Made by a program: the position numbers and the translations under genes. DNA of 63,901 nucleotides, filler included, from Vannella sp. (Eukaryota): assembly GCA_023345925.1 (NCBI GenBank). It is 6 parts of 6 records of this genome, joined end to end, with 100 filler letters (N's around TTAATTAATTAA, not from the genome) between each part and the next. Parts side by side here need not be neighbours in the genome. Positions count along the whole stretch, not along the records: positions 59,948 to 63,901 come from JAJQQN010000753.1; 5 more parts are not named here. One strand, written 5' to 3'. Positions 3,404-63,901 of the stretch are shown piece by piece. Below the pieces are notes generated by a model, which was not told where the DNA came from, did not search any database, and saw only the letters and a list, made by a program, of their open reading frames with translations. How positions within the stretch are numbered: the stretch's first letter is position 1; each line of letters begins with the position of its first letter.

Positions 3404-4312
3404 ATGGCGGAGTCTCGAGGGGAACCCTTCAAGAAGGGTGGTTCTCGGCCATTGCAAGGGGCTGTGCATGTGGTGTATGCAGCGGTCTCAGGGGCGGCGG
3501 GATGTGCGGCGGTGTATCCTTTAGACCTAGTGAAGACCAGGCTGCAGAACCAAGTGGTCGTTGCTGGACGTCCCCCTTTGTATGCACACACTCTGGACTG
3601 TCTCCGTAAAGTGATCTGGTCAGAAGGGGTGCTCGGCCTGTACAAAGGGCTTGGCGCTCAGATGATTGGAGTCACGGCAGAGAAGGCTATTGGCTTGAGT
3701 GTCAATGATGGACTCCGAAGGCTTCTCTTGAAGGACCAGAAAGAGCCTTACTTGAGCATGGAGGTGTTTGCGGGGGCGATGGCGGGCTTTTCTCAAGTTC
3801 TCGTGACCAACCCGTGCGAGGTTGTGAAGATCAACCTTCAGATACAAGGGCAGCTCTTACGTCAGGATCTTTCGCCGACTGCCCGCCCTTCTGCAACTCA
3901 GATCATCCGCCAACTGGGTTTGCGCAGGCTCTTTGTCGGCTCTTCTGTGTGTTTGCTTCGAGATGTGCCATTCTCTATCATCTACTTTACTGCATACCCT
4001 CGTTTGAAGAGGATTCTGAGTTCAGAGGACGGTTCAACGAGCAAGTCTGGTCTCCTTCTCGCTGGGGCAGCTGCTGGAGTGCCTTCAGCAGCACTCACTA
4101 CTCCTGCTGACGTCATCAAGACACGCATCCAGGCTGGGATTAACCCAACACTCAAGTCTAGAGGAATCAGCTCCGTAACTCTGGACATTTGGACCAAAGA
4201 AGGGCCCATGGCCTTCTTTAAGGGGACGTGGGCTCGCATGCTACGAAGCGGTCTTCAGTTTGGAGTGACTCTCTTTGTGTATGAACTACTCCAAAACGTC
4301 ACCGTATCCTAG
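3404..4312 (+). CDS. Mitochondrial carrier, aspartate/glutamate carrier-like (aralar/citrin carrier domain only)
   Basis: Three PX[DE]XXK motifs (PLDLVKTR, PCEVVKIN, PADVIKTR). GVTAEKAI.LSVND, LLRDVPFSIIYF and QFGVTLFVYELLQ resemble the SLC25A12/13 carrier domain. Confidence 0.88.
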   Translation: MAESRGEPFKKGGSRPLQGAVHVVYAAVSGAAGCAAVYPLDLVKTRLQNQVVVAGRPPLYAHTLDCLRKVIWSEGVLGLYKGLGAQMIGVTAEKAIGLSVNDGLRRLLLKDQKEPYLSMEVFAGAMAGFSQVLVTNPCEVVKINLQIQGQLLRQDLSPTARPSATQIIRQLGLRRLFVGSSVCLLRDVPFSIIYFTAYPRLKRILSSEDGSTSKSGLLLAGAAAGVPSAALTTPADVIKTRIQAGINPTLKSRGISSVTLDIWTKEGPMAFFKGTWARMLRSGLQFGVTLFVYELLQNVTVS

Positions 4313-4558
4313 TCCTCCTTCCCACGCAAGGATTCTTCCCAAGAAAACGCACTTTCCAGAACTCTCTGCTATATTTCCTCGTGACAACACGGGAGGACGT
4401 AGTGTTTCCTCTTATAAAGACAAGAACACTCTCATCATCGCATCATTCACTCCCAGAGATTCAGCCTTTTCCCAATTATGGGACAGTTCATCCCTTTTGG
4501 GGGTAATTCTGGCATTCACTTGCAAAGCGATTTCCGGTTGCTTATTTTTTTCATATCG

Positions 4559-7500
4559 ATGCCGCGAGACCAGGTCGGGAGCCGACGTCAGCGGAGTGGG
4601 GGTTTGAGTCGGTCAGACCCGCGTGACAGTCAGCTGCGGTTACTGGCGAAGCTACAGGACAAGAAGGCATCTATTTACCAGCAGCTGTGCATGGCCGCCG
4701 TCTCTGCTGACGAGGCGAGCGTCCGGAAGCTCTTGGAGCAAATCGATGTCCTCCATAACGTAAGTAGCAAAGGCGAGGCCCACTAGCGCTCAGTGTATTG
4801 TACAGAAAGACCCTCTCCGACTTGCAGTAAAGAACGGGCGCTGTGGAGTCGTAAATATCCTTCTGGGGCGTCCGGAGTACGACATCAGCGACTGTTTCGA
4901 TGTGAGCAGGTCCTGAGTCCAGTGCGAACGGTCTAACAACCTCTCTATAGAACAAAGTGGGTCTACTGCACCTTGCAGCGGATGCAAATGACGCTCTGAT
5001 GTGCCAACTCCTCATTCAACGCAATGCAAAAGTGGACGCGGAAACAGAGGTTCGTCGGCACGAACCTGCTTCATGCGCTTGAGCTTACATGCACTAGAAC
5101 GGAGCTACTCCTATCCATTGGGCAGCGCGGTCTGGCCATTCATTGGCGCTTTCATTGCTCCTTCGTTCTGTTCCGGGTCGTTTGGACCAAGTTGACAAGG
5201 TAGTTTGATTGATGTCTGTAGGAACTCTTCATACTGACTGAATCAAAGGGTGGGGAGACTCCCCTTCACTACGCTGCAAGGACCGGAAATCTGGAAGTTA
5301 TCAAACAGCTTCTCTTGCATGCTCCTGGCTCCATAGACATAGGAAACAGAAGAGGAGACACCCCATTACACATTGCCTGTCAGCTTGGAAGGTTGAACGT
5401 GATCTCTCTGCTGTTAGAGAAGAAAGCGGCCACTTATCTCTTCAACCAGGCAAGTGCGCCCTCCTTTGAGCAACTTAAGTGTCTGATTGGGTGGAGCTTA
5501 GAGAGGAAACAACCCTTTGCAAGAGAGCATATCATTCACCCAGCTGGAGGCCGCGGACCTCCTTCTGGAGGGATCAGACTTACTTCTCACCGACACCACG
5601 CTGGAAGGCATCAACTGCCTTCATCTGGCAGCTAGGAAGAGTTCAGACTTCCCCGAGGGCATCCTCTACGTTCTGGAAAGAGGAGGGAAGGATCTCCCCA
5701 TCGACATTCTGAACCGAAACGGAGAGACTCCCTTACTGGAAGCAGTCCGCAGTGCAAACATGAAGTGCATAGAGATTCTCTTGGAGAAGGGTGCTTCTCT
5801 ACTGGCCGATGGGCTTGTCCATGCAGCTGCAGAAGCGAATCAGTTGGAGGTATTGGACCTTCTCATAAGCAAGGGAGCTTCTTACTGCACCCTCTCAAAG
5901 TCAGGGATGCTCCCCTTACATGCTGCTGTGTTAGAAGGATCAGATGCTGCCGTAGAGAAGATATTGGACCTCCATCCAGAGCAAATTAGCTCCGTGACAG
6001 AGCGGAAGCAAACTCCTCTCCACCTTGCCGCCAAGCGAGCTCTTATGACCACTATTTCCTTATTGCTAGCAAGGGGAGCCGCATTGGATTTGAAGGATTC
6101 TATTGGAAACACTCCTTTGCACTTAGCTTGTGCATCCGGGTCTGCCTCTACAGTTGCTGTCTTGTTTGAGGCAGGCGCTGACGCAGGGGCTATGAATGAG
6201 CAGGGTCTGGCTCCTTTTGAGCTTGTCACCCATAACGATGTGGCTGCTTATGCCTTTTCTCATGAGTTCCCAGCGGCCCAGATTCAAACTCTGGACATCT
6301 CGTACACTTCTTTAGTTATTCTTCCGCAATCGAAAGGGTATTGGGCTTCTCTGAAGAAGCTGGAAACTCTTGACGCTCGTGGGAATCTCTTCTCTTCGCT
6401 CCCTATTGGAATGTTGGCAGCCCCCGCTTTAGTGAATGTTTGGCTCCAGAATAATCCTCTCCAAGACATTCCGTCTTCCACAAAGCGGCAGAACTGTCAG
6501 TGGAAGGACATTCGAGCCTATCTTTCCACCCTCCAAAAGGATTCTGTTCGCTGGAATGAGAAGAAACTCTTTATCATTGGTGATGAAGGTGCTGGCAAGT
6601 AAGTACGCGCAGTACCAGTGAGTATCATACTAATGGCCTTCAGGCGAGCTCTTTTGGCTGTACTGAAAGAAGGAGATCTTGTGAATCGAGTGAAAACGCG
6701 CCTCAGAAAGTCAATGCAACCAAAACGCCTGAGAAAGATCATTAATACCCGCAATGTGATAGACCCGGAGGAGGAACCCGCTTCTTCTTTAACCGTAGGA
6801 GAGAACGATAACACTCCTGAGGATGCAAATGAGCGAGAGCTGATAAGGATTGAAAGAAAGCATTCAATTACTACTCCAAGAAAGAAAGCAAACGACAAGA
6901 AGCGAGGGCCTGCTCCTGGAGCACCTTTCACAGTAACTTCTTGGATCTTCAGAGCGGACGTCGCCTCTGCCTGCCCTTTCTTCTTTACCAACCAGGCTGT
7001 GTATTTACTTGTTTTCAACCTCCTGACCCTCCCTCAGAGAATCACTGCCATCGATTCTTGGGTCCAGCAGATTCGGCAACAGACTCAAACATCCCTTCCT
7101 GCTGCAGATATCCTCTTAGTAGGGACACATCGTGACGACGATCAATGTAGTGAAGAGTATCTGGAGCATATCACCCGGATGCTGACTGAACGGTATCCCA
7201 GTAACCGGTACTCTCAGGTCCGACACATTCTAATGGTCTCTTGTAAGACAGGAAAAGGCTTTTCTGCGTTGCATGATGCGCTCGAAGCCTCTGCAGCGAC
7301 CATTCAACCCATAGTCAGTCCTGCTTGGCTGGTAGCGCATCACCATCTTCAAGATCTTGCAGCAAAGGTTCCATTTATTCCGTGGAAAGAGTATTGTGAG
7401 ATCGCTCATTCCTGTGGCGTATCTGCAGAGGAGATTGGACCTCTCACCCAGTTCTTGGGGACAACCAGCACCTTGCTGTATCAACCAGAGATGTCCTTTG

Positions 7501-10338
7501 TCATTCTAGATCCTCTCTTGCTAGCCCGTTTCGTTATTTCTGTGAGAACGCTGAACCCTGGCAATTCACCTACTCTCTCTCTTACAGATTTGCTGAATCG
7601 TCTTCCTGAATGGAGTAAATACGAACCAGCCATGCAACGACTGCTTATTCGCGTCCTCATTGACTTCCACGTGACTTACGCCATCTCTACTGGCGAGGTT
7701 CTTTGTCCTTGGATGCTTTCGAGCTCATTCCAACTTCCTTGGACCCGAGACCCTTCTCCGGATGTCATCCAACATGGGAGGATCTTTGACTTTGCTTTTG
7801 TTCCCCTGGGCATCATTGAACGACTTTTTGTGAGCCTTTCTCTCTTGCCATCTGATACCAAGCTTCGGGGCGCCAATGCCAGCCAGATAGTTATCGAATT
7901 GAATGAGCAAATGGCCATTATCTCATTTGTGCCTCGGCGGATTGACCAACACGCCTACCAACTCATTGTCCAGGGCCGTACGAGCCGTTCTAGCCAAAGA
8001 GAAGCGGTCCTTTTCGTCGAGGTTGTGACATTAGTGGAGTTCCTCATTGAAAGTTGCTACCCGCAGCTCCGTTCGACATTGCTCATGAGAGTGGAATGCT
8101 CCCATTGCACTTCTTGCCCTCTTCTACGCTCAAACCCTCATTATTTCAGTTACAGAGAGTGTGTTGCAGCGGTGATGGGTGGCAGTCCGGATCCCTTTTT
8201 GTTTTGCCGTGGAATTCAAGACCAAGGCCGTAAAGTCCTTGTTGAGTGGACTGCTCCTGATGTTGTCTTAGCGCTGTTACAACCGTGGAGGTTGGAGGAA
8301 AGTCGCCTCCAAATCATTCGCTTTCTGGGTGAAGGTGCAACGGGAGAAGTTAATCTTGGTACTCTCACAACAGAGACCAAGGATCCCGAATTAGTCGCGG
8401 TGAAAGCTTTGACCGGCGGAAAGAGAGATTATCTTGATGAGGATGATCGTCTGGATGGTCAAATGAAGCTGTTCCAAGAGATTAAGCGAGAAATTCACTT
8501 GATGACGTGAGTATCCCGCCTTTGACTCAATTTCGACTGACTTCTGGGACAGTTTGTTGGATCATCCCAACGTTATTGCCCTGCGGGGGATTCTTGACAC
8601 CCCATTACGGGTGGTTATGGAGTTTGCCCCGGCTGGAGACCTTCATCAACTCATTCGGCGCCCTTTGGAAGATGGCTCTGGCCGATTTGAAGGACAAGCT
8701 AAGCTCTTGCCGTGGTCCTTTAGATATCGGTTAGCTCTAGACATTGCCCTTGGCATGCAGTACATTGCCGGTCAGCATCTTCTTCATCGTGACCTGCGCT
8801 CTCCAAACATATTCCTCATATCCAGGTCTCCTGAAGAGGCTCCAGCTTACCCTGCTCCGATTGCAAAGGTCGCTGACTTTGGTTTGTCTGTTTTTGCCAT
8901 GCCAAAAGCTTCTGGAGACCTTCGAACATGGCGTTGGCTGGCTCCTGAGGTATTCCACTTTAGTGTGCGAGAATATGGACTAGCAAGTGACATCTATAGC
9001 TTTGGCATGGTCCTCTGGGAGCTCATTGATGGTGCTTTCCCTTTCGGAGAGTTCAATGCTGATGAATGGGAAGTTCAAGAGTCCATCGTGAAGGAAGGTT
9101 TGCGCCCGACCATCGGTTCATGCGACCCGAGATACTCCTCTCTCATTCAAAAGTGCTGGGCCAACAGCCCGAAGCGTCGACCTAGTTGGACCGAAATTGT
9201 GGAGGAATTGGTTGCTCTAGCGGAGGTCCAAGCTCCAGAAGCCGCTCCCTTGGTGAAACGACCAAACATTGCAATGCTTCAACGGGACTCTCGCTTTACC
9301 AGCTTCAGCATCTCGACGGCTTCGCTGACCCCCACGGGTCAATGGGAGTTCCCTGAGAGAATCAAAGCGATGGTGAGAGTACGAGATTGTATTTGGCTGG
9401 GCAATCGGGCCGGGGAAATCATTATTTGGGGTCCACTACCGAATGGTGCGGAGCAGGCTCGATGGAAAGCTCACACTTCAAGTATCTTAAGTCTTCAAAC
9501 GGTCTCAGATTCTCCCGATTCTCTGGTAGTTTTGAGCTTTGGTGTTGGAGGGACTTTGTCCATTTGGAAGGCAGAAGCGCCTTACAGTCCTGTGAAGAGT
9601 ATTCTCTCTATTGGGAATGTGACGGCGGTCGGACGCGCTTCCTTTCAGGGTATGGCGACCGTTTGGGTGGCACTGCAACCAGATACGAACGGTTATCCGG
9701 TGCTGATTTACGGCTCGACTAATTTCCAATCCTCTTCGTTACTTCTTGACCCTCCGGAGAATTGGGACAGGAAGACCTTGTTGGCTTCTTGTGTGGTGGA
9801 CATTGTCCAATGCGGTTCGTTAGTCCTGTTGGCGACCTCAAGTCACATCTATCTTGTGGATTTAGAGACTCTCACTCCCCAAGGATACTTGCCTTTGAAC
9901 TGTGAGGACCGATTGCAGCACCTGCTGGTGCTGTTGCACCCTCCCCAGCTTTGGGCGGTATTCACCCGAAAGATTCAAGTCTACTCCGTTCAGCACTCCC
10001 CATTCTCAGTGAATCTGATACGAGAGTTGGATGGCCACTCGAGTAAGATTGTGAGAGCCGTTGTGATTGGCCAAGATTGGTCGGATGTCCGGAATTCCAA
10101 CGCGTTTTCCACAGAGAAGGTTTGGAGCACTTCTTTTGATGGTCAGTTCATTATCTGGAGTACAAAGCACCTTTGTGGTATTCGAGAAGGCTGGCTACCT
10201 ACTTCTGATGTTCCTTGTCTCCCTCTCCCCATCGATGAGTCCACTATGATGCTAGTCTCTCACTGCACGCCCACTACCCTCTCCACCCCAGACAGTCGCC
10301 TCATCTGCTTCAATTTGCCCACTTCCCCAGCCACATGA
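4559..10338 (+). CDS. Roco-family protein kinase: ankyrin repeats-LRR-Roc-COR-TKL kinase-WD40-like
   Basis: Multi-exon gene. ANK repeats (GETPL, QTPLHLAA, GNTPLHLAC), LRRs (LETLDARGN, VWLQNNPL), Roc (KLFIIGDEGAGK, AVYLLVFNL, LVGTHRD, VSCKTGKG), COR with CxxC, kinase (GEGATGEV, VAVK, HRDLRSPNIF, DFG, WLAPE, SDIYSFG) and a beta-propeller-like C-terminus. Confidence 0.88.
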
Positions 10339-12696: not shown

Positions 12697-12796
12697 NNNN
12701 NNNNNNNNNNNNNNNNNNNNNNNNNNNNNNNNNNNNNNNNTTAATTAATTAANNNNNNNNNNNNNNNNNNNNNNNNNNNNNNNNNNNNNNNNNNNN
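12697..12796. other. Artificial contig linker (N44-TTAATTAATTAA-N44)
   Basis: An identical 100-nt spacer with a six-frame stop cassette occurs five times in the window. Confidence 0.98.
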
Positions 12797-14633: not shown

Positions 14634-17600
14634 TTAATCATAGTTGTTGTCGAGGTCGACCTGTTGCATGTCTTCGTTGGCAGCGGAATCCATCTGAGCA
14701 AAGTTATTAAAGTGAATGGGCCGGTGAGAGTAATGGTAGAACTCCTTGGGAACGCCCAGCTTCATGCCATACTTGGCAGTGATCTTGTGCTGGACAGGGA
14801 GGAAGTTATAGTTCCAAGATCCAAAGTCAGGCACAATGAAGAAGCCCATGAAACGGTCAGAGAGTAGGAGCTGGGTCTTGTCATAGAAAGTGGGAGAGTA
14901 GCCTTGGTAGGTCTGGTCGGTCCTCTCTTTGTTTTTAACGCCCCAATCAAACCCTCTGGGAGTGACAGTGTATGCAGTGAGACTGCAACTTCCAGGTGTA
15001 AATGCAGAAGTGATGACAACGCACTTTTTGGGGTCCCATGTCTTGTGATTGCTCATGACATGAGATTGGATGATCACATCCTCTGGAGAGAGCTGTGTCA
15101 ACTCTCTCAACTGGGTGTGAATCCAACCAAGAGGCTCGAGGTCTTTGAGCTCAGGACTGTTGGGATCAGGAAGGTTCTCGGGGAGAGTGACAGATTGGTG
15201 AGTGCCTCGTTGGGGAATCATGGCGATACAGCGAATCTCCTTGACTTGAGGGTTATCTGGTGGAGACAAGCCATAGAGGAAGCCTGAGATCTGAGTACGA
15301 AGATCTGCAATGCAAATGAACTGCTTCAGAATGTTCTTTGGAAGGACAAATGTGAATCCAGACTCTTTCACATCATCAGAAGACACGTAGATGTTGTTTG
15401 TGCGAAGGTGAAGGTTCGTTGCTGAGATGGCTCGCACTCTCCAGTCTGTCTTGGAGGAGAAGATAGCTTTCTCGTATTGAGTGGTCGTATTGACAAAGAT
15501 CTCTTCGCCATACACATTGGTTGTCCGTGTGGTCACTGCAGTCAGTTGGCTGGCTTCACGAGCCTGTTGTTTCTCAATGTCTGCAACCTGCTGACGTTGC
15601 TCCGAAGGGGGAGTGATCTCAGCTCCCAGAATAATGTCCCTGATCTCTGTTTGGGTGAGGGAGTTGATGTTCACGCTGTTCTTCTTTCCATAGTCCGCCA
15701 AAATGAGATTCTTTAACTCCACTTCAACATCAATCCACTGCTCGTCCGTCAATGAGGGCCAAATGTGATGGGCCTCCGTGATGACAGTCTTGTCGGGCTT
15801 GAGAATGATCTTTCCGCGCTCATTGTTCACGTGCAACGCTCGTAGGATCAAGATAAGTCGCGAGAAAGCAGTAAAAGGAGAAACTGTACGCAGCCAATCA
15901 TCATACAAGCAGAACAGAACCGTTTTAGGCTCAATCGCCTTGAGAATCAAGTCACCGAACTTCTCAATCTTCAAGCAAGCTTGGAAGGGCAACTGAAGAT
16001 CGCTCCCTTTGATGACAATATTGGGAAAGTCAAGCAAGTGCACCTCAAGAGGGTCAAGCATACCCTTGCGGGTCACAATGATTTGGCGGGGCTGGTCTTC
16101 TACAGGCAATGATCGAATCAAGGCTGCCACTTCTTCTGCTGTCTTCCATTTGGCCAACTGCCCCAGGCGCTTCTGCCCCGCCCATACGGAGGTGTGGATG
16201 ATCTTCAAGTGGAGCTGCCCAGTGCGAGGATTGAAGATGAAAATAGCACCGTTGATGGGTTTGGTGGTGAGATTGCCCTCAAAGGTCTTTCGGATGGTGA
16301 CACGGTAGACGTTTGTGTCGTCCACGAACCATTTGGTCTGATTTGAGAAGAGTTCTCCGTAGTTTTGGGCAGAAAGGTAAGGCTCCGTTGGCTCTGACGA
16401 GTAGAGCTGAAGTCCCTTGCGAATGCGCTCACGCAGAACGTAGAGAGCAGGATTGGCCTTGATAATCTTAGCCATAGCTTGCTGCAGAGTGACTTTGGAC
16501 CCAGGGAACCAGTTTCCATAGGCAGAGTGCACGTTGTAGGCCAGGTCAATGGCGACGAGGACTCCTGTAGGCGAAGGATACATTGACATGGGGTCGGTGG
16601 TGTAATCCATAAACTTAGAGCGCGCATATCGTTCAATGTCATGCGAATCAAAGTCACCCCAGCGAAGCTGAACGTCCAACCAATACTTGTTTGTGGTGTT
16701 GTCAAACTCGTCATTGCCAGTCGTAATCTGAGAGGGTTTGGATACTTGCCACTTGTACGCAGCAAACAGAAGGATGTCCGCGCATGAACTATTCATCTTG
16801 TAGGACTTACGCGGGTGAATCGTCTCTTTCTGAACTGTCGCGACGTCCAGAGAATCGAGCTTCTGGTCGAAGACTTGGCACAGATCCATCACAACGGACT
16901 CGTGAATCTTCTGCCAAAGATGCGCGCGGAAGATCTGAATGAGAGAGATCTTCAAGGTGGGGATCTTTCCGTGCATGAAGATGCCAGTGAGATCCAACTG
17001 CACCTGGAATCCTACGTAGACGTTGGCTCGGTTGATAGTCGGGGACCACCACAAGGTGAATCGGCGGTTAGGAATCTGATTGAGACCAGAGCGCTGGGCA
17101 TTGGTGAGCTTCTTGAACTTCATGGACTCTTCGAAGCCAGAAGCCTTCTCCCAGAAGAGGCCTTCCCACGTGGGGAAGTAGGTTCCTTGGAAGAGTGTGT
17201 GTTCCAGAATGCCTTCCACACCACCCAATGCTTGAATCATGTCGGTTCGATAGTTGTTGAGGGACCAGAGCTTGCCATCGTGACGCTGGTGCGTCCAATA
17301 GAAGGGGTTCATTCGCAGGGACTGGTACTGTTGGAACTCACTACGGACGCGCCAACCCTTATCGTACGCCAAAGTGTGACGATCCTTTTGGAAGAGAGTG
17401 TTGATTCGAGGGATTCCTCGGTCCCAAGAGTCTTCCAAGTCTTCCAGAGTGAGCCGGCGGTTCTCTTCCGCTGCCTTTTTTCGCTTCAGCATGTATTCTG
17501 CCCAGACACGCTTGGAGTCAATGAACTCCTGTTCCCATGGAAGAATGTAGCGGTACAAGTTAGGAATGAGCTGATCGGCATCGTGACTGAGGCCAGAGCG

Positions 17601-20600
17601 ATAATGAGTTGGGCCAATATCAGTCTGGGAGGCGTAGCGCAAGTCAGACTGAGGGATGAGAACATGTCCCATGGAGAGCATGCCAAGGCCACCAAGTTCC
17701 TTTGGAGTGTAGAAGACCACCGGTGGGAAGCGGGAAGGCATCTTGGAGTTGAGGCCAATCTTAATGCGCGTCTGAATCTTGTTCTCACACTTGACTAGCA
17801 GGTCCAGTAGCTCTTGTGTGTGCACTGTTGCTTCGCGGAAGTAAGTCATCAACCCGATAAGGGCGGTGTTCCACTTGTTGGCAATCTTGGTGAAAGTAGT
17901 GGAGCCAGAGGACATCAGAATCTGGCGAATGCGGTTCTCAAACTTGTCCATGGCGTCTTTCTCGACACGCAAGAAGGCCTGAGCGGTACGCTCCTTTGTA
18001 CTATCATTTTGGAGGTTCCACACGCCGTCTTGATGGACAAACTCCTCGTTGAGAGTCCGGATCTTGGGGAGAATGCGGACTTCAAAGCCGCACATACTGA
18101 AGAGAAGATTCGGGTTGTCCTTGCCGTAAACAGACACGAAGCTGTTCTCCCACTCAATGGTGGTGATGGCACGAGGAAGGCGGTTCTTCAAGTTCCAGAA
18201 CACAGCGCGCCCCAAGTTCACGTCGTGCTTCATCAAGCGCATGCGCGAGTCGCGTGGCCAGCACTTCTTGTTGTTGTACCCCACAACGTTCTCATTGTTG
18301 GGATCGGGGTGCTCGGTAAGGTACTGTTGAATGAGCTCCTTGGCGTCTTCGTGGTTGAACCGGTAGAGGATGTGGATTTTGTCAATCGAGCGGGAATAGA
18401 GCCTGACAGGGTGCTTGGTCTCCACGTCCACGCTATGATACGTCAAGAAGTCATTGGGCATGTTGGGAGATCCAGCAATATCGCTGGCACGTGTCAGACC
18501 AAGAAGAAGAAGATCAAGCATCAAGCAATAGTACTGGACAATGAAGGAGGCAAACTGAAGGCCACGGATAAGCCCGTAGGAGTTAGTGTGAATCATGTCC
18601 TTGTAGTTGATTAAGACGTTGTTCTTGGCCGTCATGTAATCAGCAATGTTGTGGTCAACAATGAGGCGCAAGAGTCGATTGAGCAGAGTCAAATCGATCT
18701 TCTCATAAAGCTTCTCCAGCTGTGTTTCGACCATAACCACGCACTCATCATTGGAGGTGTCCCAAATGGAGTCCAGGTTGTTGATTCCCTGACACCACTT
18801 GTACACAAGAAGTGGTGGAGGTTCTGAGTCCGCGGGTTTCACCCAGTTGGGGAAGAGGCGGCGCTTGTCAGACTCATACCAAACGTACTGGTCCAAGTAG
18901 GCATCGGTGATCTTCTCCAGTGGCTGAACATCGTAGACAGGGAAAACGTGGCTGTAAAGGTCCATAAACTCGATGCGGACTTCCTTAAAGCTTCTTTGTG
19001 TGAGCAAATGCCGTTTGATACGGCTCAAAGCCTCATGTGGGTTGTCATAAGCCTGCTCTACCAGCCCAAGCTCCTCTCTTTGTGATTGGTTCAGACGAGC
19101 AGTGACATTATAGGCATCTTTGAGACGTTCCAAAGCCAGAATGAGGAGTTTGGTGTCGTGCTTGTACGATAATGGAGGGAAGGGAATGGGGCGGAATCTT
19201 CGGCTCTCTAACCAGTGGACTGTTGTGGTGTAGATAGCCACTCCCTCTTCGGCACTAACATAAGGACCATCTTTGAGGTAGTTGTGTTGGCGTTCTTGTT
19301 CAGCCTTGAGCCACAGGCGAGTAAGGCGTCCCAAGTTCTTCTTACAAACCGTTTTGTCGACGGTGGCTCCCCGGCGAATACGCTCACGGTTGTAGTGAGC
19401 AACGTTGGTCCAGTAGTCAGCCTTTTGCTTGACGTAACGGATGATCATGTTCTCAATCGGGGCGGGAATGCCAGGCACCTTCCATGGTGTGTTCGACTTC
19501 CAGCAACGCCAAGCCTCGCTCAGATGCTGCAGAATAGTTCTCGATTTGTTAGCTCGAATGCCCTCAGGCATCATATCTAGAATGTCCACCATCACGGTCG
19601 CTCGGAGTTCCAAATCAAAGTTACTCTCCACACGTTGCTTAGTGACGGTCTTTGCCACTCCCTTTGAGTGACGGCCCTCAAAGTTACGCGCCAAAAGGTT
19701 GCCCAAACAGCGCTCAAGCAGAGGGACGATACCACGGAGGAAGAAGAGCCACACGCGCCAACCAGGGGCCCAGAACCCACAGCCAGGTCCTTTTCCAACG
19801 TTGCCTGTGTTGAACCGGTAGTAGATCAAGTGCTTGAGATCCTTGCACATGCGGATCTGGCGCATAAGACGGTACTTGTAGCGGTACATGCCTGTCAGTT
19901 GGCCAATGTGCGAGAAAATGTACTGTAAGCCATCCGCCAGCTGGTAGGCATCAACATTGTTACCAAGGCGGTACTGAACGTGGGAATCGACGATCATCTT
20001 TGTCATCCGCAGGATCTCCCGGCAAAGGTGGAAAGAGTTACCAAAGCGGGACTTCTTGCGCTCTTTGGTCGTCAATGTCTTGACGGGCTTCAGGTTGAAG
20101 TTGTAGTCCAGGTGGAGGTAGTTGAGGTTCTTCCGGTGGATGAGCAAGTTGAGCATGTTGTAGCCCTGGCGGCACACTTGCAGGCCAGCTTCCACCCAAT
20201 CGATGACAGTGGACTGGAAGAACTTGGTGGCCTTGAAAGAGCGGAACAGATACTTCTTGTTCAGGGCCTTGGGAGGGCGGTGGCGGAGCTTGTTCAGGAC
20301 GAAGCACTTGAGGAGTTTCTGATAACTGACGCGCACTTTGGTGGGATGGTCAGAGGGGCAGTGCTCTTGGTACCAGCTCTTGATGAGAGGGACATCCATG
20401 GCACGCCTGGTGCGACCAGAACGTTGGTTGAATGGACGGGGCGCGTGGTACAATGTAATCGCATCCGCAGTGTGGGCGGTGTACAGAGCAAAGGACTCCA
20501 ACAAAGGTGCTACTTGATGCTCTCCAAGGAGCGTAGCAAGCTCCTCGTCTTCTGCCTCCGTGAACTCAGCGTCATCGTTGATCCAGTCGTCCTCCTCCTC

Positions 20601-21551
20601 AAAGACGTCGCGGATGTCGGACTCTCCTTTGTAAGCAGGAATGGGATTCAGGATGGGGTCAAAGTAGAACGCGGGGAGATCAGGGGTGTCTGTCTTGACG
20701 TAAGCCAGAGCGGGGTGATGGTAATGAGCCAAATAGACCTTTCGGGGGCGGTTGTTGTACAAGTAGGGGAAGGCCACGCGGTATTCAGTGCGGATTTGAG
20801 AGCGAATAATGATCTTGTTGATGTCGTTGAACTCGTTCCAGTCCTCGTCTTCCTTCTCGTCCCGGAAGAGCGGCTCAAACTTGGGGCCACCAGGAATAGC
20901 CATGTTGAGGGCCTTGGCGGAGTAGAAGGACGCTAGATCGAACATGTAGTAGTAGTTGGGGTCCACAATGTCACTCAAAAGTTGCTGACCTAATCGATAA
21001 AGGTTGGACATCACGCCAACCGGCAACCGCCAGTTCTTGTAGCTTTCTCCGTTCAGGAACTTGGATTCAAGGAGGGGTTGGTGGTCATAGAACCATTCTG
21101 CAACGGCCGAGTCATCCTCTTCATTGAGTTCCATGTGGATGGCCTCCAGTGGAGGGACGTCCAGGATGTTGTCGCCATAATCAAGAGGGGGCTCTTCATC
21201 ATCGAAGGGAGGGAAGCGCATCCGTTTGAAGTGCTTTCGATCGTGCTTCTCGCGTCTCATCATAATCCACATGGTTCCCCATTGCGCAATGAAGATAGGT
21301 TCCACCACTAGAGGGATCTCATTAACAAAGGTAATAGCTCCAGTGACGTGATAGAGAACCTTAACGTCTCGAATCTGCTCCCAAGGCATGGGCATGTTCT
21401 CCAGAAGCTTCAGAACCGCGTGGGGCATGTACTTAAGAGCACCAAGATAGACACGCTTGTCGCTGCGGAACATTTTGCTGGACATATCGCAGTGGTCCTT
21501 GATGATTATGCGGAGATGCGCGGCAGGAAGGTCCACCGTCTGGGCATCCAC
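14634..21551 (-). CDS. PRPF8: Pre-mRNA splicing factor PRP8, 5'-truncated at contig end
   Basis: A 2305-aa uninterrupted ORF with PRP8 motifs throughout ([66 protein letters not shown]) and a C-terminal Jab1/MPN region. Confidence 0.99.
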
Positions 21552-23034: not shown

Positions 23035-26000
23035 TCAGAAAACAATGGGACGCGCAATATGCTGTGGCAAACTCTGAGTTTTCGCTACAAAGAAGAACGC
23101 GGCGTCAACCTCTTGTCTGATCCTCTGATATCGCACTTCAATCAAGAAAAGAATCGCCAAGGCACCGCCACCAGTATTAGGGATTTCAATGCTAGTGGGC
23201 CTATCACCAGTGATGTTAGCAAGATGGATAGTGATCAGCTGACGCGGAGAGCTGAAAATGGGCGCTAGAGAAATAGATTCAGGACCAGAGCCGAGACTTG
23301 AAGCTGTCGAAGGACGGTTCGAATTACTTAATGAAGAACTAATTGAAGTGAAACTACTTCCTGCAGAAGAAAAGCTCAAGGTCGCGGTCTCTCTTGGAAT
23401 CAAAATAGGCGAGCTCAATTGAACGCTCTCAGCGATAGAGAGAGAGCTTGTTTCTGATGGGCTTCTTGATTTGGTGCCTGAAAGGCTGAGTGATATTGAA
23501 GGAGACGAAAATTGGAAGGCCTGAGAGGTAGACGGCAACAAAGATTGCGCCGGAGGTGGAGAATCAAGAAAGCTCGCTGAGTCAGATATTGTTTGTGAAG
23601 GACTTACAGATTCGAAGGCAGAATATGAAGGGCTAGTAGATGTTGCTGGAGAGTCAGATACTGAGGGATGATTTGATGTCAGAGTACTTGATTGGGAGCC
23701 AAAAACAGAAAGGCTTCCAGTCGGAGATGTTGATTCTTTGGGATTTTCAGATTCAGAAACAGAAACAGAAACAGAAACAGAAGGGCTGCCAGAAATAGAT
23801 GATGCTCCCGAAGAGCTTTCTGATACAGTTGATGAAACAGAAGAGCTAAGTGAAACATATTGAGAATCAGATGCAGAGGTAGAGGGAAATGTTGTTAAAG
23901 ATGGAGAATCAGGTACTGAGGGAGAGTCTGGTGTTGTCTCTGAAAGACTTCTTGATTTGGAGATAGAAACAGAAGGACTGAATGATAAAGAAACAGACAA
24001 AGTGGAAGAAGGTGCTGCTAGAGATGGAGAATAAGAGGATGTGGGGGACCCTGATATTGATTCAGAAGGACTTGTGGACATAATGATAGAAACAGATGGA
24101 GTGAATGATTGAGAATCCGACAAAAGGGAAGACGCTGTTGGAGACAGAGAATCAGAGGCCGTGGGAGATTCTGAAGTTGAAGGACTCAATATTAAAGTCC
24201 CAGATGGAGAGGAAGAAGAAGAGCTTGTTAGAGACGGAGAAAAAGAGGCTATGGGAGACTTCGACGTTGTTTCCGAAGGACTTCTTGATACCAAGATAGA
24301 GGTAGATGGACTGAACGATAAAAAAACAGATAAAGAGTTAGAAGAAGATGCCGTTGGAGACAGAGAATCAGAGGCTGAGGGAGATTCAGATATTGTTTCG
24401 GAAGGACTTTTCGATAAGGACACTGAAACAGAAGGACTGAACGATAAAGAATCAGACGAAGTGCTAGAAGGAGATACTATGGGAGTTAATGAATTGGAGG
24501 CCGTAGGGGACTCCGATTTTGTTTCTGATTTAAAGACAGAAACAGACGGACTGGAAGATGAAGATCCAGATGCTGTGGGAGAAAGAGAGCCGGAAACTGT
24601 GGGAGACCCCGACATTGTTGCCGAAGGACTAGCTGATTTAGATCCGGAAGCAGAATGGCAGGTAGTCGGAGATGTTGTTCCCGAAGGACTTCCAGATTCG
24701 GTAGCAGAGGGCGAAAGGCTCAGCGACTTTGATGCGGACTCAGATGCTGACAAAGTTGGAGAGGTAGAGCCGGACGGTGTCTTCGACGTAGACTGCGTTG
24801 GAGACTTCGAAGGTGTCAGAGTCGAAGACGTGGAAGGACTGGCCGATGATGTTACAGACAGTGAAGGCGTCATCGAGATGGAAGGAGAGGATGAACAGTT
24901 AATGAAGATGCGGTTAGAAGGGAAGTCATCAGGAACCAAGTTCAAGTCAATTTTCCCTGATGTGGCCATTTTTGTCGTTAGAACAGAGGAACCGCACTGT
25001 CCTGATAATCCCGCGTTCACACTCACAGTCGAAACTGTAAGCGCAGACGTAGCAAAGTAACCACCACCTCCACCACCGCCGCCTCCATGCAAAGCATCAA
25101 CTGTGAGACCGTTCCCCCCTTCCAACAGCCAAGTGAACAATTCAGTCTGAAATGCAGTCTTGTTGTTGCAAAGAACTATCACAGTGCCTCCCGCCCCTCC
25201 TTTTCCCGGTTCAGATCGAAAAACAAAGAAACAGTCAAGTGGAGATGCTCACCTCCAGGTCCTCCATCTTCTACCAATGGCAGGTCTGGTCGTTCCTCCC
25301 CTCTGACATCGATTTCAGGATCTGGATAGAGAGGAATGATTTTGGCAAATGCATGGATGAACAGTAGGCCGCCACCGGATAGGCCAGCAGCCCAGATATT
25401 GCCCCCGTAGAAGCCGGCATCGTTCGGTGCAGGTCCACCTCCTCCTCCGCCTAAGCAGATAAGGACAGGATGTTGCATACAAAGACTCTTACCAAGATAC
25501 AATCTGGTCGCTGGATCAACTGGAACTGCAGCTCCTCCTAAACCCGCTTCAGAGTCGAGATTTGTGTAGTAAGTGGTACTGTAGTAGTTGGCTCGCCTTC
25601 CATCTCCTCCACTTCCAGCATTCGATCCACCACCTCCCCCACTATCAGTAAAGATTCCCCCTCCACCAGCGTTCCCAGGAGCGCCTTTTCCGCAATCCAA
25701 CTGGAGCGGGTAACTCGTTTCGGATAGAACCGTGTACCCGATGAATCCTTCTCCTTTTGGTCCATTGAAGGGCCCGCCACTGATTCTGGTGGCAATGGAG
25801 TCGTCTCGATAGTTGGAAGCAATCGGGATGGCTGTCGTGATGATTTCTGCAAATGGGACCGGAGGAGCCCCTCGGAACCCTTTGCCTTGGAGGCTTACGT
25901 TACCCAGATAGATCGTTTGTGCTAGAATAGCATAAACACCACCTGCCTCTCCATCCCATGGGGGAATGACTGGGGAGTCGATGGTAGCTTCGTCACAGAC

Positions 26001-26409
26001 AGGCACTCGGATGGCTTGGAAGCGACGATTCTCAGTGCTGGAATAGTTGTTGAGTAATGGTACTTCGAGTGTGATGTTGGATCCTTGGACGAGGGAGATC
26101 ACGGCGAACTCGTACAGACCAGCCTCCCCCAAGTCGGTGTAACCGTTCCCTGTCGCGTTGTTAGAACCGTAGTTAGCGTCGTTGGAGTTGCTGATAGACC
26201 CTCCTTGCATTTGAATGACCATGAGTACGTCTCCCGGCACAAGTCGCACAGCCAGCCACCTCCAATCGCCGATCAAAAGCTGTCAATCCGCGACAGTAAA
26301 CGACTTCCAGCCCTCCAGTGCCATTACAAGCTGAAGGACACGGAGTCGTACAGACCATCCAAGCAAACATTAACAGCAAAAAGAGCCGCCAGGTCATCGC
26401 AGCTACCAT
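23035..26409 (-). CDS. Secreted/surface protein: bacterial-like Gly-rich extracellular domain plus long Ser/Thr/Pro-rich stalk
   Basis: Signal peptide (MTWRLFLLLMFAW). Motifs PGDVLMVIQMQG, AGLYEF, FQAIRVP, WDGEAGGV, GKGFRG, GAPGNAGGGG, GGAGGTV and HGGGGGGGGG. GT-AG introns at ~25451-25492 and ~25200-25252. About 550 aa of Ser-rich degenerate repeats. A frame change near 26250-26300 needs a ~25-nt intron or a frameshift. Confidence 0.75.
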
Positions 26410-59947: not shown

Positions 59948-60475
59948 GCTACAACGAATCGCTTGACGGGACTGATGCGGCGCAGAGTCTTCACGAACTC
60001 TTGGGTTGCGTCCATTGCCTTGATAGAAGCTTTGGTCATGGGCATGCGCGCCAACCAGTCGTACTCGAGTGTGTTGTTGATACAGTGGCTCCAAGTGTAA
60101 GCAATTCTGTCATCCTCTTCTCTAGGCTTCTGAGAATGTTCCCCACGAAGGTGAGGGGCTGGTTCGGGATCTGGTAGAGGACCACGCCAATGGTGCCCGG
60201 ACAGCATAGCTCAGCACGTAGGGGTTGATGCGCTTGAGGGATCGTTGAAGAGCTGAGTGCTTCCATCCATAGAGCAAGAGCATGTCCGCTTGGGGGAGCC
60301 ATCAAGGTGGGGATGCAGAACTGCAACCAAGAGTCCAGATCTCTTTGCCGTTCTCCACTTCTCCTGCACTGAACCATTTCTAGAATACGTATGAGAGGGA
60401 GGTCTAGTGGGGGGAAGGTGAAGGCAAGGGCGAACCTGTGAGGTCAAGAAGAGGTTGTGGACGTTGAAGTCGGGC
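59948..60475 (-). pseudogene. Frameshifted AprA/PqaA-family gene remnant
   Basis: Fragments LFLTSQ|KWF..EV, IWT..WLQFCIP, VVLYQIPNQPLTF and REEDDRIAYTW...WLARMPMTKASIKAMDA.QEF...FVV lie in different frames with no intron to explain the shifts. Confidence 0.7.
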
Positions 60476-60671
60476 AAGGGACAATCCGCGTGCTCACCAC
60501 CCCTCTCGTTCTTTTCCATACATCCCAGGGCAAGTGCTGCCGATTACCACGTTCAACGTGGTTCCACCTCGGGCTCTTGCGTCGTCCTAAGGGAATACCG
60601 CTTTGCTGGTTAAGCCACCACACCTCCTACACTTCTATCACCAGCCAAGGAAAGGAGAATCAGCTCCGATC

Positions 60672-60730
60672 CCAAAGCGGGCATTAGCTTTGATCCGACG
60701 CAGCGAAAAGCTCTCGTTTGGGGTGTTCGA
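60672..60730. repeat. Dispersed short element, copy B
   Basis: 31/35 identity to 21652-21686 on another contig. Confidence 0.6.
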
Positions 60731-61072
60731 CGTTCGTTCGTCTCTCGTCTATCGCGTCCGTTGTGGAAGCGTGGTTATCCCTCGTCAGGAACGACGAGGA
60801 AGGGATAAAAGAGACACTTTACCCGACAATCTCCTCCCAATGCATCGTGTAGTTCTGAGGGTTTATTGTTGGAGGAACACTCAGTGAGTGATTGATACCA
60901 AGCACGATGGCCATCAGTAACGGTGTGTCGTCGAGAAGAAGCAACAACCATCCCTGAATCCTTATCTTGTGGCTTGCAATATCTATCAACACCAAATATT
61001 ATATGAACATATCATTTGCTCTTGCGGGCTCTTTGTGGTGTAGTCAGGCAATTTCTCTTTTTCTTGTTTCCC

Positions 61073-63901
61073 ATGTGCGCCCGGTTGCTGCTCTTCCTCG
61101 CTTTGCTGGCCTCGGTTGTCTGCCTCCTTCCTCAAGCGCAGATTGACTCCCTGGTTTCCCTTTACGAATCGACGGGGGGCCCTTCTTGGTTTACCAAGAC
61201 GGACTGGAACAACGGAATGGACCCTTGCTCGCCTCTCTGGTTCAGAGTGGCTTGCAATCCTACCCACTCCGCAGTTATTGGCCTCTACCTTTACTCGAAC
61301 AACTTGACTGGCTCCCTACCGGATTTGCAGCTCCCTGAGCTCGTAGTCTTGTGAGGAGAACCTTTCGCTCCCCTTCTTCGCCAACGCGCTCATCCATTGC
61401 TTACAGAAACTTGGCTGGCAATAACATCAACGGGCCTCTGCCAGAGTGGACCAATCTGACGAGCCTGGAGAAGATGTAAGTTCATCAAGCCTCTTCCACT
61501 CGAATGAGGGAGCCAACGGTCCTTCATCATGTGGACAGGAGTGCCACATCCATGAGACAGCACTCATTGATTGCTTTTAGATTCTTGAACGACAACAAGA
61601 TCAACGGACCTCTTCCAGAATGGTCCAATCTGACCCAACTGCTGGTCATGTGAGTAGTCTTGAGTCCTCTTCCACTTGAATGGGGAAAGGACAGGGGACC
61701 CCTTCATCAAGTGGATATGATGGCATTCAGTTGCACTCATCGATACCTTGCAGGGAATTGTTCAACAACAAGATCAACGGAACTCTACCACAATGGTCCG
61801 CTTTGAAGAATCTGGAACAAATGTGAGTGGTTACAGTCCTCTTTCGCTTGAATGGAGAAGCGTTTCGTCATGAACAGGAAGGAGCGCCACAAGCATGACA
61901 CTTCGCTCATCGATGGTTTGCAGGCACTTGTATGAGAACCAGATCAGCGGTCCTCTTCCAGAATGGTCTAATTTGACGAGCCTACAAGACATGTGAGCAG
62001 TTTCAGTCTCCTTAACCCCACCATGTCATCATGAGCGCCACATTCATGGGACTCCTCCACTCATCGGGTGTTAGGCGATTGTACATCAACAAGATCAACG
62101 GAACTCTTCCAGAATGGTCTCATCTGACGAGCTTGAATGTCATGTGAGAAGTTTCAGTCCTCCTTCAAGTGGACACAAGTAACAGGCCTTCACTCACCGA
62201 CCGCTTACAGGTCCTTGTACAGCAACAGGATCAGCGGAACTCTTCCAAACTGGCCCAATTTGACGAGCCTGACTGCCTTGTTAGTACTTTTGCTCCCTTT
62301 TCAGCCGAACTCGAATGGGACTTCCTTGTTTGGGCAAAAGTAGCGCAAACATGGCGCTTCGCTCATCGATTGCTGGCAGTGAGTTGCACAGCAACCAGAT
62401 TAGCGGAACCCTTCCAGAATGGTCCGATCAAACTCACCTTTATCTGAGTAACCTGGGGACCATGTGAGTGGTTTCTGTCCTCTTTCACTTGATTGAGCTT
62501 TACTCACCGATTGGTTACAGGGACTTGAATGACAACCAGATCAGTGGAACTCTTCCTAACTGGTCCCATATGGTAGGCCTGCTTTTCATGTGAGTAGTTT
62601 CAGTCCTCCTCTGCTTGAATAGGGAAAGGTATCACTTCATTTTGGCATGGCCACTCAAACCCAATGGGATTCGCTGATTGATTACTTCTTCTCTTCTACA
62701 GAAGCTTTCGCAACAACACAATCAGCGGAACTCTCCCTGAATGGCCCACTCTGACGAATCTGCGAGGCATGTGAGTTTTTGAAGTCCTCTTCCCAACAAA
62801 TGGGGCCACAACTATTGGGCTTCACTCATTGATTGGTTAGTACCTTGGACGACAACCAAATCACTGGATCTCTTCAAGAATGGCCCCATCTGACCCGCCT
62901 AGGCAGCCTGTGAGTACTCATTCTCACCTGCGAGCAACATGGGACAGCTCTCATTGATTGCAGATTCTTGAGTGGCAACCAGATCAACGGATCTCTTCCA
63001 CAATGGTACTATCTGGTGAAAGTGTATTACATGTAGGTTTATTCAGATCTCTTCTACTCGAATGGGGAAGGGAATGTGAACATAAGCGCCTCAAGCATGA
63101 CCCTTCACTCATCAATTTCTTGCAGAACCTTGTTCAACAACCAGATCAGCGGGCCTCTTCCAGAATGGTCCAATCTGACGAGCCTGCAATACTTGTGAGT
63201 AACTCCTGTCCTCTTTCATTCGGATGAAGAAGAGAATCACTTCGTCTTGTGGTCTCACGATAACTCATTGATAACTTGCAGGTACTCAGAAAACAACCAA
63301 ATTAGCGGAACTCTGCCATACTGGAGTGGATTGACAGCCCTTTCTATTGTCAAATTGGGAGGAACCAACAGTCTTTGTGGGAATCTGCCTAATCCCCGCC
63401 CAAAGAACTATGATATCACTCTTCCCAATCAGGTGTTCAACTGTACTTCCCTTCCGCCTGGTTACAGTTCTAGCTCAGCAATATGCCATCCCATCGCGGG
63501 AGTGTGCGCTCCTTCCACAAGTTCGTTGACGCCAACAAACTCTCCGTCTGGCTCTGTCACTCCGAGCCCCTCTAATTCTGCCACACCCTCCTGGAGTGGC
63601 AGTGGGAGCGCGTCGATTACTAATTCCCTGAGCGAGAGTCCAAGTTCTTCTGAAACGCCTTCTTCAAGCGGAAGTGAAAGTGTGTCGACCTCACCTTCTC
63701 TCAGCTCAAGCCCTTCTGCTTCTGCAACTCCCACTTCGAGTGGTAGTGGATCGGAGACATCTTCTGTCAGCGGGAGTCCGACTGCTTCAGCAACTGCCTC
63801 TTTGAGTGGCAGTGAATCGGAGACTTCTTCTGTCAGCGGAAGTCCCACTGCTTCTGCAACTCCCTCTTCGAGTGGCAGTGAATCGGAGACTCCTTCTGTC
63901 A
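61073..63901 (+). CDS. Secreted/surface LRR protein, one LRR per exon, with Ser/Thr stalk (3'-incomplete)
   Basis: Exons 61073-61350, 61407-61475, 61581-61649, 61754-61822, 61924-61992, 62075-62143, 62211-62279, 62380-62463, 62521-62589, 62702-62770, 62841-62909, 62964-63032, 63126-63194 and 63282->63901 splice through GT-AG introns into one open frame. It encodes a signal peptide, an LRRNT_2-like cap (LYESTGG..W....W....DPC...W..V.C), about 14 LxxNxIsGxLPxW repeats, a Cys cap and a Ser/Thr/Pro stalk. Confidence 0.92.
63721..63901 (+). repeat. 66-nt coding tandem repeat (22 aa, SATPxSSGSESETSSVSGSPTA), at least 2.7 copies
   Basis: Units start at 63721, 63787 and 63853 and run off the window end. 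Confidence 0.85.

Follow-up and report, generated by a model that had tools for sequence, protein, structure and literature searches.

The gene at the end of the window, the 63,901-nt stretch of DNA analysed here, is probably the front part of a vannellid surface-receptor gene whose leucine-rich repeat (LRR) arm consists of exon-plus-intron units copied in the germline, spliced in plain order and positively selected on one face. We propose that a single 69-nt exon and its intron were duplicated repeatedly in the germline, and that the arm grew in this way. Since all introns interrupt one and the same leucine codon in phase 2, unequal crossing-over could add, drop or replace whole repeats and leave frame and fold intact. 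Selection would then vary six exposed strand positions, and a stalk, likely ending in a membrane anchor as in relatives, would lift the arm above the cell coat. The most likely candidate ligands would be variable molecules on the surface of prey, parasites or kin. The layout itself is not new: plants, brown algae and ciliates have it too.

Structure of the cassette-exon gene

The window is made of six pieces joined by five identical N-linkers (with a 12-base core, at 12697, 21552, 39078, 52736 and 59848), so adjacency across the linkers is meaningless. Sequence inspection placed the gene on the last piece (59948–63901), and its exons were modeled from GT-AG rules, splicing thus being a prediction from the sequence. 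The features of the model are as follows.

61073..61350, plus strand: exon 1, with predicted signal peptide (hydrophobic residues 1–19, mean hydropathy 2.56), Cys-containing LRR N-cap (N-cap relatives), first repeat and phase-2 donor
61407..61475, plus strand: cassette exon E2, 69 nt, one 23-residue LRR
61581..61649, plus strand: cassette exon E3, 69 nt, with a core common to many other contigs
61754..61822, plus strand: cassette exon E4, 69 nt
61924..61992, plus strand: cassette exon E5, 69 nt
62075..62143, plus strand: cassette exon E6, 69 nt
62211..62279, plus strand: cassette exon E7, 69 nt; its donor (GTTAGT) is the sole non-consensus one
62380..62463, plus strand: cassette exon E8, 84 nt, with five additional residues on the convex side; also in a variant copy
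62521..62589, plus strand: cassette exon E9, 69 nt
62702..62770, plus strand: cassette exon E10, 69 nt
62841..62909, plus strand: cassette exon E11, 69 nt; in one contig this exon shows 6 differences and its flanks none
62964..63032, plus strand: cassette exon E12, 69 nt
63126..63194, plus strand: cassette exon E13, 69 nt, nearest to the family consensus
63282..63901, plus strand: last exon seen, with final repeat, four-Cys C-cap (C-cap relatives) and Ser/Thr/Pro-rich stalk
61476..63281, plus strand: introns 2–13 of the array, 54–112 nt, homologous to one another

The predicted spliced frame runs for 580 codons without a stop and ends at the contig end. It encodes, in order, a hydrophobic N-terminus, a Cys N-cap, 23-residue repeats of the pattern LxxLxLxxNxIxGxLPxW, a four-Cys C-cap and a stalk. 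The earlier note had described twelve internal exons, eleven of 69 nt and one of 84 nt (E8), with phase-2 introns at one LRR position, set between a signal peptide/N-cap exon and a C-cap/stalk exon; the spliced model and its predicted frame agree with this description. All 13 introns (54–112 nt) have GT-AG ends, interrupt the frame in phase 2 and contain a CTCAY/CTGAT branch-like motif 11–25 nt from the 3' end. The codon that each of them cuts is that of the second strand leucine of the LRR (the first Leu of xxLxLxx). Were phases independent, phase 2 in 13 of 13 introns would have a probability of 6e-7, and we attribute the shared phase to common ancestry of the introns. The stalk contains a 66-nt tandem repeat and is 68% Ser/Thr/Pro after residue 76 of the last exon. 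No hydrophobic segment occurs in the last exon before the contig end at 63901, the contig stopping ahead of any anchor.

Each of the 169 possible donor-by-acceptor combinations is in frame and yields a hydrophobic junction residue (Ile in 63, Met in 54, Leu in 46, Phe in 6). Skipping or swapping of exons, which the earlier note had expected to leave the frame intact, would therefore preserve both the frame and the core residue. This symmetry of all exons is what combinatorial alternative splicing, producing many receptor isoforms from one gene, would call for, but the same symmetry is needed for duplications to survive and requires no function in splicing. The introns, moreover, are short and have near-uniform donor and branch motifs. 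Dscam-type diversification depends upon docking-selector RNA pairing; no recurring pairing of that type was found among the introns, which contain eight short, unrelated, weak inverted pairs. Skipping of LRR exons has precedents in Ectocarpus ROCO genes (PMC11378527) and human NLRP3 (PMC6642158), whereas a comparative study describes exon skipping as low outside bilaterians, linked to gene architecture and uncommon in unicellular eukaryotes (PMC6142364). We consider combinatorial splicing an improbable source of diversity here.

Retention of an intron would introduce a stop just past the junction codon in 12 of 13 cases, intron 7 with its GTTAGT donor being the one that reads through; retained introns would lead to short secreted products or decay. 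Elsewhere in the window, a Roco-type gene (5502–10338) encodes ankyrin repeats and a few unsplit LRRs (frame 5502–6602), followed by frames that we take to resemble the GTPase, kinase and C-terminal repeat parts. The statement that the Roco LRRs are not split in the manner of the array is borne out by this uninterrupted frame, but the LRR hits are weak and the gene lies on another piece of the window. Another predicted surface protein, at 23035–26282 (minus strand), combines an N-terminal part rich in Gly with a very long Ser/Thr stalk that contains a 126-nt repeat.

Copying of the exon-intron units

The eleven 69-nt exons are 55–81% identical in pairwise comparison (mean 68%), and introns 2–13 can be aligned with one another. 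Once the splice sites and the final 22 nt had been stripped from the introns, 33 of their 78 pairwise comparisons scored better than 200 shuffles (p<=0.01); in addition, 9 of the 12 array introns outscored the best of 45 candidate (unverified) introns elsewhere in the window. This homology extends beyond the splice signals, indicating that the unit of copying was an exon plus an intron, and the fact that the introns remain alignable indicates that the expansion is not ancient. Likeness between exons was independent of their distance in the array (rho 0.04, p 0.62), neighbours being no more alike than distant exons, and supports in the exon tree did not exceed 65. The sequence of duplications is thus unreadable, and the lack of a distance effect speaks against simple local duplication, which predicts likeness among neighbours. 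No orphan, relic or inverted cassettes were found on the contig, where the best off-exon or minus-strand hit had E=0.13.

We examined related sequences in assembled contigs of three DNA runs from one biofilm study, in which 27–37% of sampled words of the window were present; no RNA run was listed as containing them. The three runs may be the window's own source and so provide no independent support. At 85% likeness the region was matched by 262, 301 and 460 contigs, most of them less than 95% alike to it and only 22, 24 and 34 alike at 99% or more. At position 63153 in E13, another letter was present in 32, 39 and 52 contigs. Exact pieces had a depth of about 3 and exon 1 had almost no extra cover, summed depth not being equivalent to copy number. 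Loose contig ends run on as other cassettes with like phase-2 boundaries. Together with the divergent contigs, these ends indicate that many related cassettes exist in the organism or its kin. Intron homology and the related cassettes in the contigs thus uphold the proposal that the repeats arose by exon duplication within a large family.

Exon order was assessed at 96% likeness, at which 24 pieces were listed and 87 more were present; 17 long pieces were tiled and seven short or partial ones left out. The tiled pieces bridge 8 of the 13 adjacent exon pairs in window order with at least 31 exon bases per side, and a further bridge, E8–E9, has 27 bases on a side; E6–E7 and much of exon 1 had no cover. 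No other exon order with sides of at least 30 bases was present among the 96% pieces listed. At 85% likeness, the 15 joints listed of 166 were disregarded, as they look like matches to paralogues and have short sides. An assembly artefact was also ruled out as the source of the array, based on the 19–45% differences among exons and the near-exact contigs that bridge 8 of 13 exon pairs (from runs that may be the source study). Variant pieces differing by 2–4% keep the same order, including the odd 84-nt exon. The earlier note had held that one constitutive isoform, a single-copy locus and identical exon order across isolates and relatives would make the array only a fossil of tandem duplication; the single-copy part did not stand, given the many related cassettes, whereas constant order was found where contigs bridge.

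In one variant contig (run X3, depth 7.8) the 6 differences all fall within E11, the 329 flanking bases being identical (P ~7e-5), whereas three other variant pieces have their 2–4% differences spread throughout. The E11 patch, seen in a single contig, is a hint of exon-limited replacement. It counts in favour of cassette exchange between paralogues or alleles through the homologous introns as the main source of diversity, which would yield a population of mosaic receptors; however, collapsed haplotypes or ordinary allelic recombination may explain a patch found in one assembled contig of one run, and no donor exon was identified for it. The independence of exon likeness from array position also fits such exchange, as do cassette cores at least 96% alike that are common to other loci, with summed depth far above that of exon 1, but consensus-like cores will draw paralogues without any exchange. 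Precedents are described in Ectocarpus ROCO genes (PMC3341825) and in Tetrahymena (PMC6564038), but the five joints listed at 96% have sides of 20–22 bases, and the contig is free of the orphan or inverted cassettes mentioned above. On balance we regard exchange as rather unlikely to be the main source of diversity, and favour germline copying of exon-plus-intron units.

Likely selection, receptor role and host

To each of the 22 whole codons per exon we assigned a site class: concave (6 codons, the exposed strand positions), scaffold (9) or other (7). The concave positions are those expected from the strand pattern typical of LRRs. The classes were fixed after inspection of the alignment, and the data consist of 11 exons of 22 codons. 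At concave codons pN was 0.62 and pS 0.36, compared to a difference of 0.45 between aligned introns. The excess of pN over pS was reversed in 13 of 1000 bootstraps, and 5 of 1716 six-position subsets of the non-scaffold sites were equally variable. A codon model gave an omega of 4.2–4.5 for concave, 0.10–0.13 for scaffold and 1.4–1.6 for other sites (p<1e-6 under three settings); the omega of about 1.5 at the other non-scaffold sites implies that synonymous change is perhaps underestimated. The test weakened when each class had its own synonymous rate, giving p=0.008 with the ML tree and p=0.135 with a star tree. Among the 23 differences listed for variant contigs, 13 are intronic, five synonymous and five non-synonymous, the last in four codons. 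All four changed codons are concave, which has P 0.006 when all codons are the reference and P 0.045 when non-scaffold codons are. Three of the four lie in a single contig, and the remaining one in a contig with a depth of 2.

These data suggest that the predicted ligand face is likely under diversifying selection, with 11 short exons as the base for this conclusion. An old relic of neutral tandem duplication, free of special selection on a binding face, could be read from the star-tree test with class-specific synonymous rates and from the tolerance of exposed LRR positions to change. It is, however, hard to reconcile with a concave pN above both the synonymous and the intron difference, with introns that can still be aligned and hence an expansion that is not ancient, and with amino-acid changes of variant copies that are solely concave; we think it very improbable. 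The idea of a diversifying receptor gains from the concave pN excess and the concave-only changes in variant copies.

Relatives were found for both ends of the gene. Three database ORFs (P0149, P0151 and P0162) are read-throughs of like arrays with six cassette motifs; an acceptor-derived residue precedes all six, and donor read-through follows exactly 22 residues in five. A full scan with the C-cap gave seven protein hits, six of them real, the seventh (P0172) being a spurious repeat hit that was removed. P0167 has a C-cap 67% identical to that of the window, followed by a stalk, a beta-rich domain and a hydrophobic segment. The beta-rich domain presumably ends in a GPS-like motif; a GPS/GAIN reading obtained no Pfam or PDB sequence match, and a single-sequence model was beta-rich (pLDDT 56) with no Foldseek match at E<=0.001. 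In P0169 the stalk gives way to a hydrophobic segment, and the Gly-rich motif that follows this segment we take to be the start of a kinase. P0171 has furin-like Cys repeats (Pfam E 1.7e-5, below the curated cut-off). The presence of a like LRR arm on different C-terminal ends supports a receptor role. The predicted signal peptide and stalk, and relatives with a hydrophobic segment or Cys-rich end, accord with the suggestion of a surface LRR protein.

A further possible reading is that vannellid amoebae maintain a genome-wide stock of interchangeable 69-nt LRR cassettes, which pass between receptor genes by way of their homologous introns and are combined with varied C-terminal modules (kinase, GPS-like anchor, Cys-rich repeats). 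We hold this to be doubtful; if true, it would mean a fast-renewed repertoire for prey, parasites or kin, and an anticipatory receptor system in Amoebozoa.

The closest hits of exon 1 are bacterial-type proteins with a matching N-cap. A search of the metagenome contigs with exon 1 yielded one relative among 590 stretches, a bacterial intronless LRR gene. The locus L001 (about 3880–4800) and the protein P0001 are bacterial-type and intronless, with a matching N-cap and 23-residue repeats, and the end of exon 1 has ten consecutive residues in common with L001. These provide a lead that may point to a bacterial origin of the repeat type. Searches for spliced full-length relatives brought up LRR proteins of bacterial type, of plants and of unrelated protists, most with 24-residue repeats (12 of the 13 hits in one of the searches), none of them a spliced member of the family. 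The cassette DNA pattern had no matches in viral and none in prokaryote genome contigs, and the literature search found no paper on transfer of plant-type LRRs between bacteria and protists.

The host was assessed from PRP8, encoded on another piece of the window (14634–21551, minus strand) in an uninterrupted frame of about 2300 codons. The best hit (89%) was from a transcriptome labelled Tiarina, a library for which a published report describes heavy contamination and a Vannella-like 18S (PMC6859813). In a tree of 20 PRP8 sequences, with sparse sampling that included two named amoebozoans and no true ciliate, the window grouped with Clydonella at 100%. The host is thus likely a vannellid amoeba, assuming that the pieces come from one organism.

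How free-living amoebae discriminate among prey, parasites and kin is poorly known. A large family of surface LRR proteins under positive selection would be a concrete, testable candidate for such recognition.

Comparison with known systems

The earlier note knew of no description of the 23-residue form in such an organism. The 69-nt size by itself has precedents: rice LRR-kinase exon sizes include 69 nt (PMC3050792), and LRR exons of 69–87 bp are enriched in humans (PMC6642158). The literature search, which did not reach subscription papers, found no paper on LRR exon arrays in Amoebozoa.

In the PDB, the cassette profile matches plant LRR proteins and PGIP best. Like the array, plant LRR kinases (ERECTA, SERK, rice group 5) carry one repeat per exon, are split in phase 2 at the first Leu of xxLxLxx and have the plant-type GxLP repeat, but the plant exons are mostly 72 nt rather than 69 nt, and for intron-rich plant subgroups little or no positive selection on the LRRs is reported (PMC3050792). 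In addition, the introns of the array are still homologous, no kinase accompanies it in the window (the gene being cut in the stalk at 63901), and the host is likely an amoeba, PRP8 grouping with Clydonella and not with plants.

Two exon types of brown algae offer comparisons. Ectocarpus type II exons resemble the array in the register xLxxNxL...LxxL, in having no inactivated or inverted exons and in positive selection at concave sites; they differ in belonging to brown-algal LRR-kinases and in encoding 24 residues in 72 nt, as opposed to 23 residues in 69 nt (PMC3341825). No sign of shuffling is reported there for type II exons, while type I ROCO exons shuffle (PMC3341825). The type I exons share with the array one repeat per exon, many paralogous exons and concave selection (PMC3341825; PMC11378527). 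Their boundary, however, lies between NxLx and GxxP, their length is 72 nt and they are joined to ROC-COR (PMC3341825), whereas the array is cut in the strand Leu and comes with a predicted signal peptide and a stalk; their introns contain non-coding and inverted exons and splice variants are reported (PMC3341825; PMC11378527), none of which was seen in the array.

Tetrahymena, likewise a protist, has large families in which exon-plus-intron units with phase-2 flanks expanded clonally, as in the array, but this ciliate has 90-bp exons, a 30-residue repeat and mostly purifying selection, and its arrays are tied to a LINE-like element (PMC6564038). Upstream of the gene in the window, a high-copy stretch at ~60478–60741 has a summed depth of 435–1131, compared to ~3 for exact pieces, and contains no long ORF; it is possibly the end of a mobile element. 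On the same piece, at 59950–60204 (minus strand), lies a fragment of the PhoPQ-activated pathogenicity-related family (PF10142, E 8.6e-15), cut by the piece end, whose depth of 16–39 suggests several copies.

Lamprey VLRs have a signal peptide, N-cap, variable LRRs, C-cap and Thr/Pro-type stalk with a variable concave face. Their germline gene is incomplete, and somatic assembly fills it in from non-coding cassettes. The array has the same order of signal peptide, N-cap, LRRs, C-cap and stalk and the variable concave face, but its germline frame is complete through all cassettes, these are spliceable exons, and none lies outside the gene on the contig. The array is no evidence for a system like adaptive immunity. 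Human NLR genes are also exon-modular, with skipping of an LRR exon in NLRP3 (PMC6642158). The array adds one more lineage with a phase-2 cut in the same leucine codon. It works like the germline-diversified LRR families and is, by their defining features, a member of none of them.
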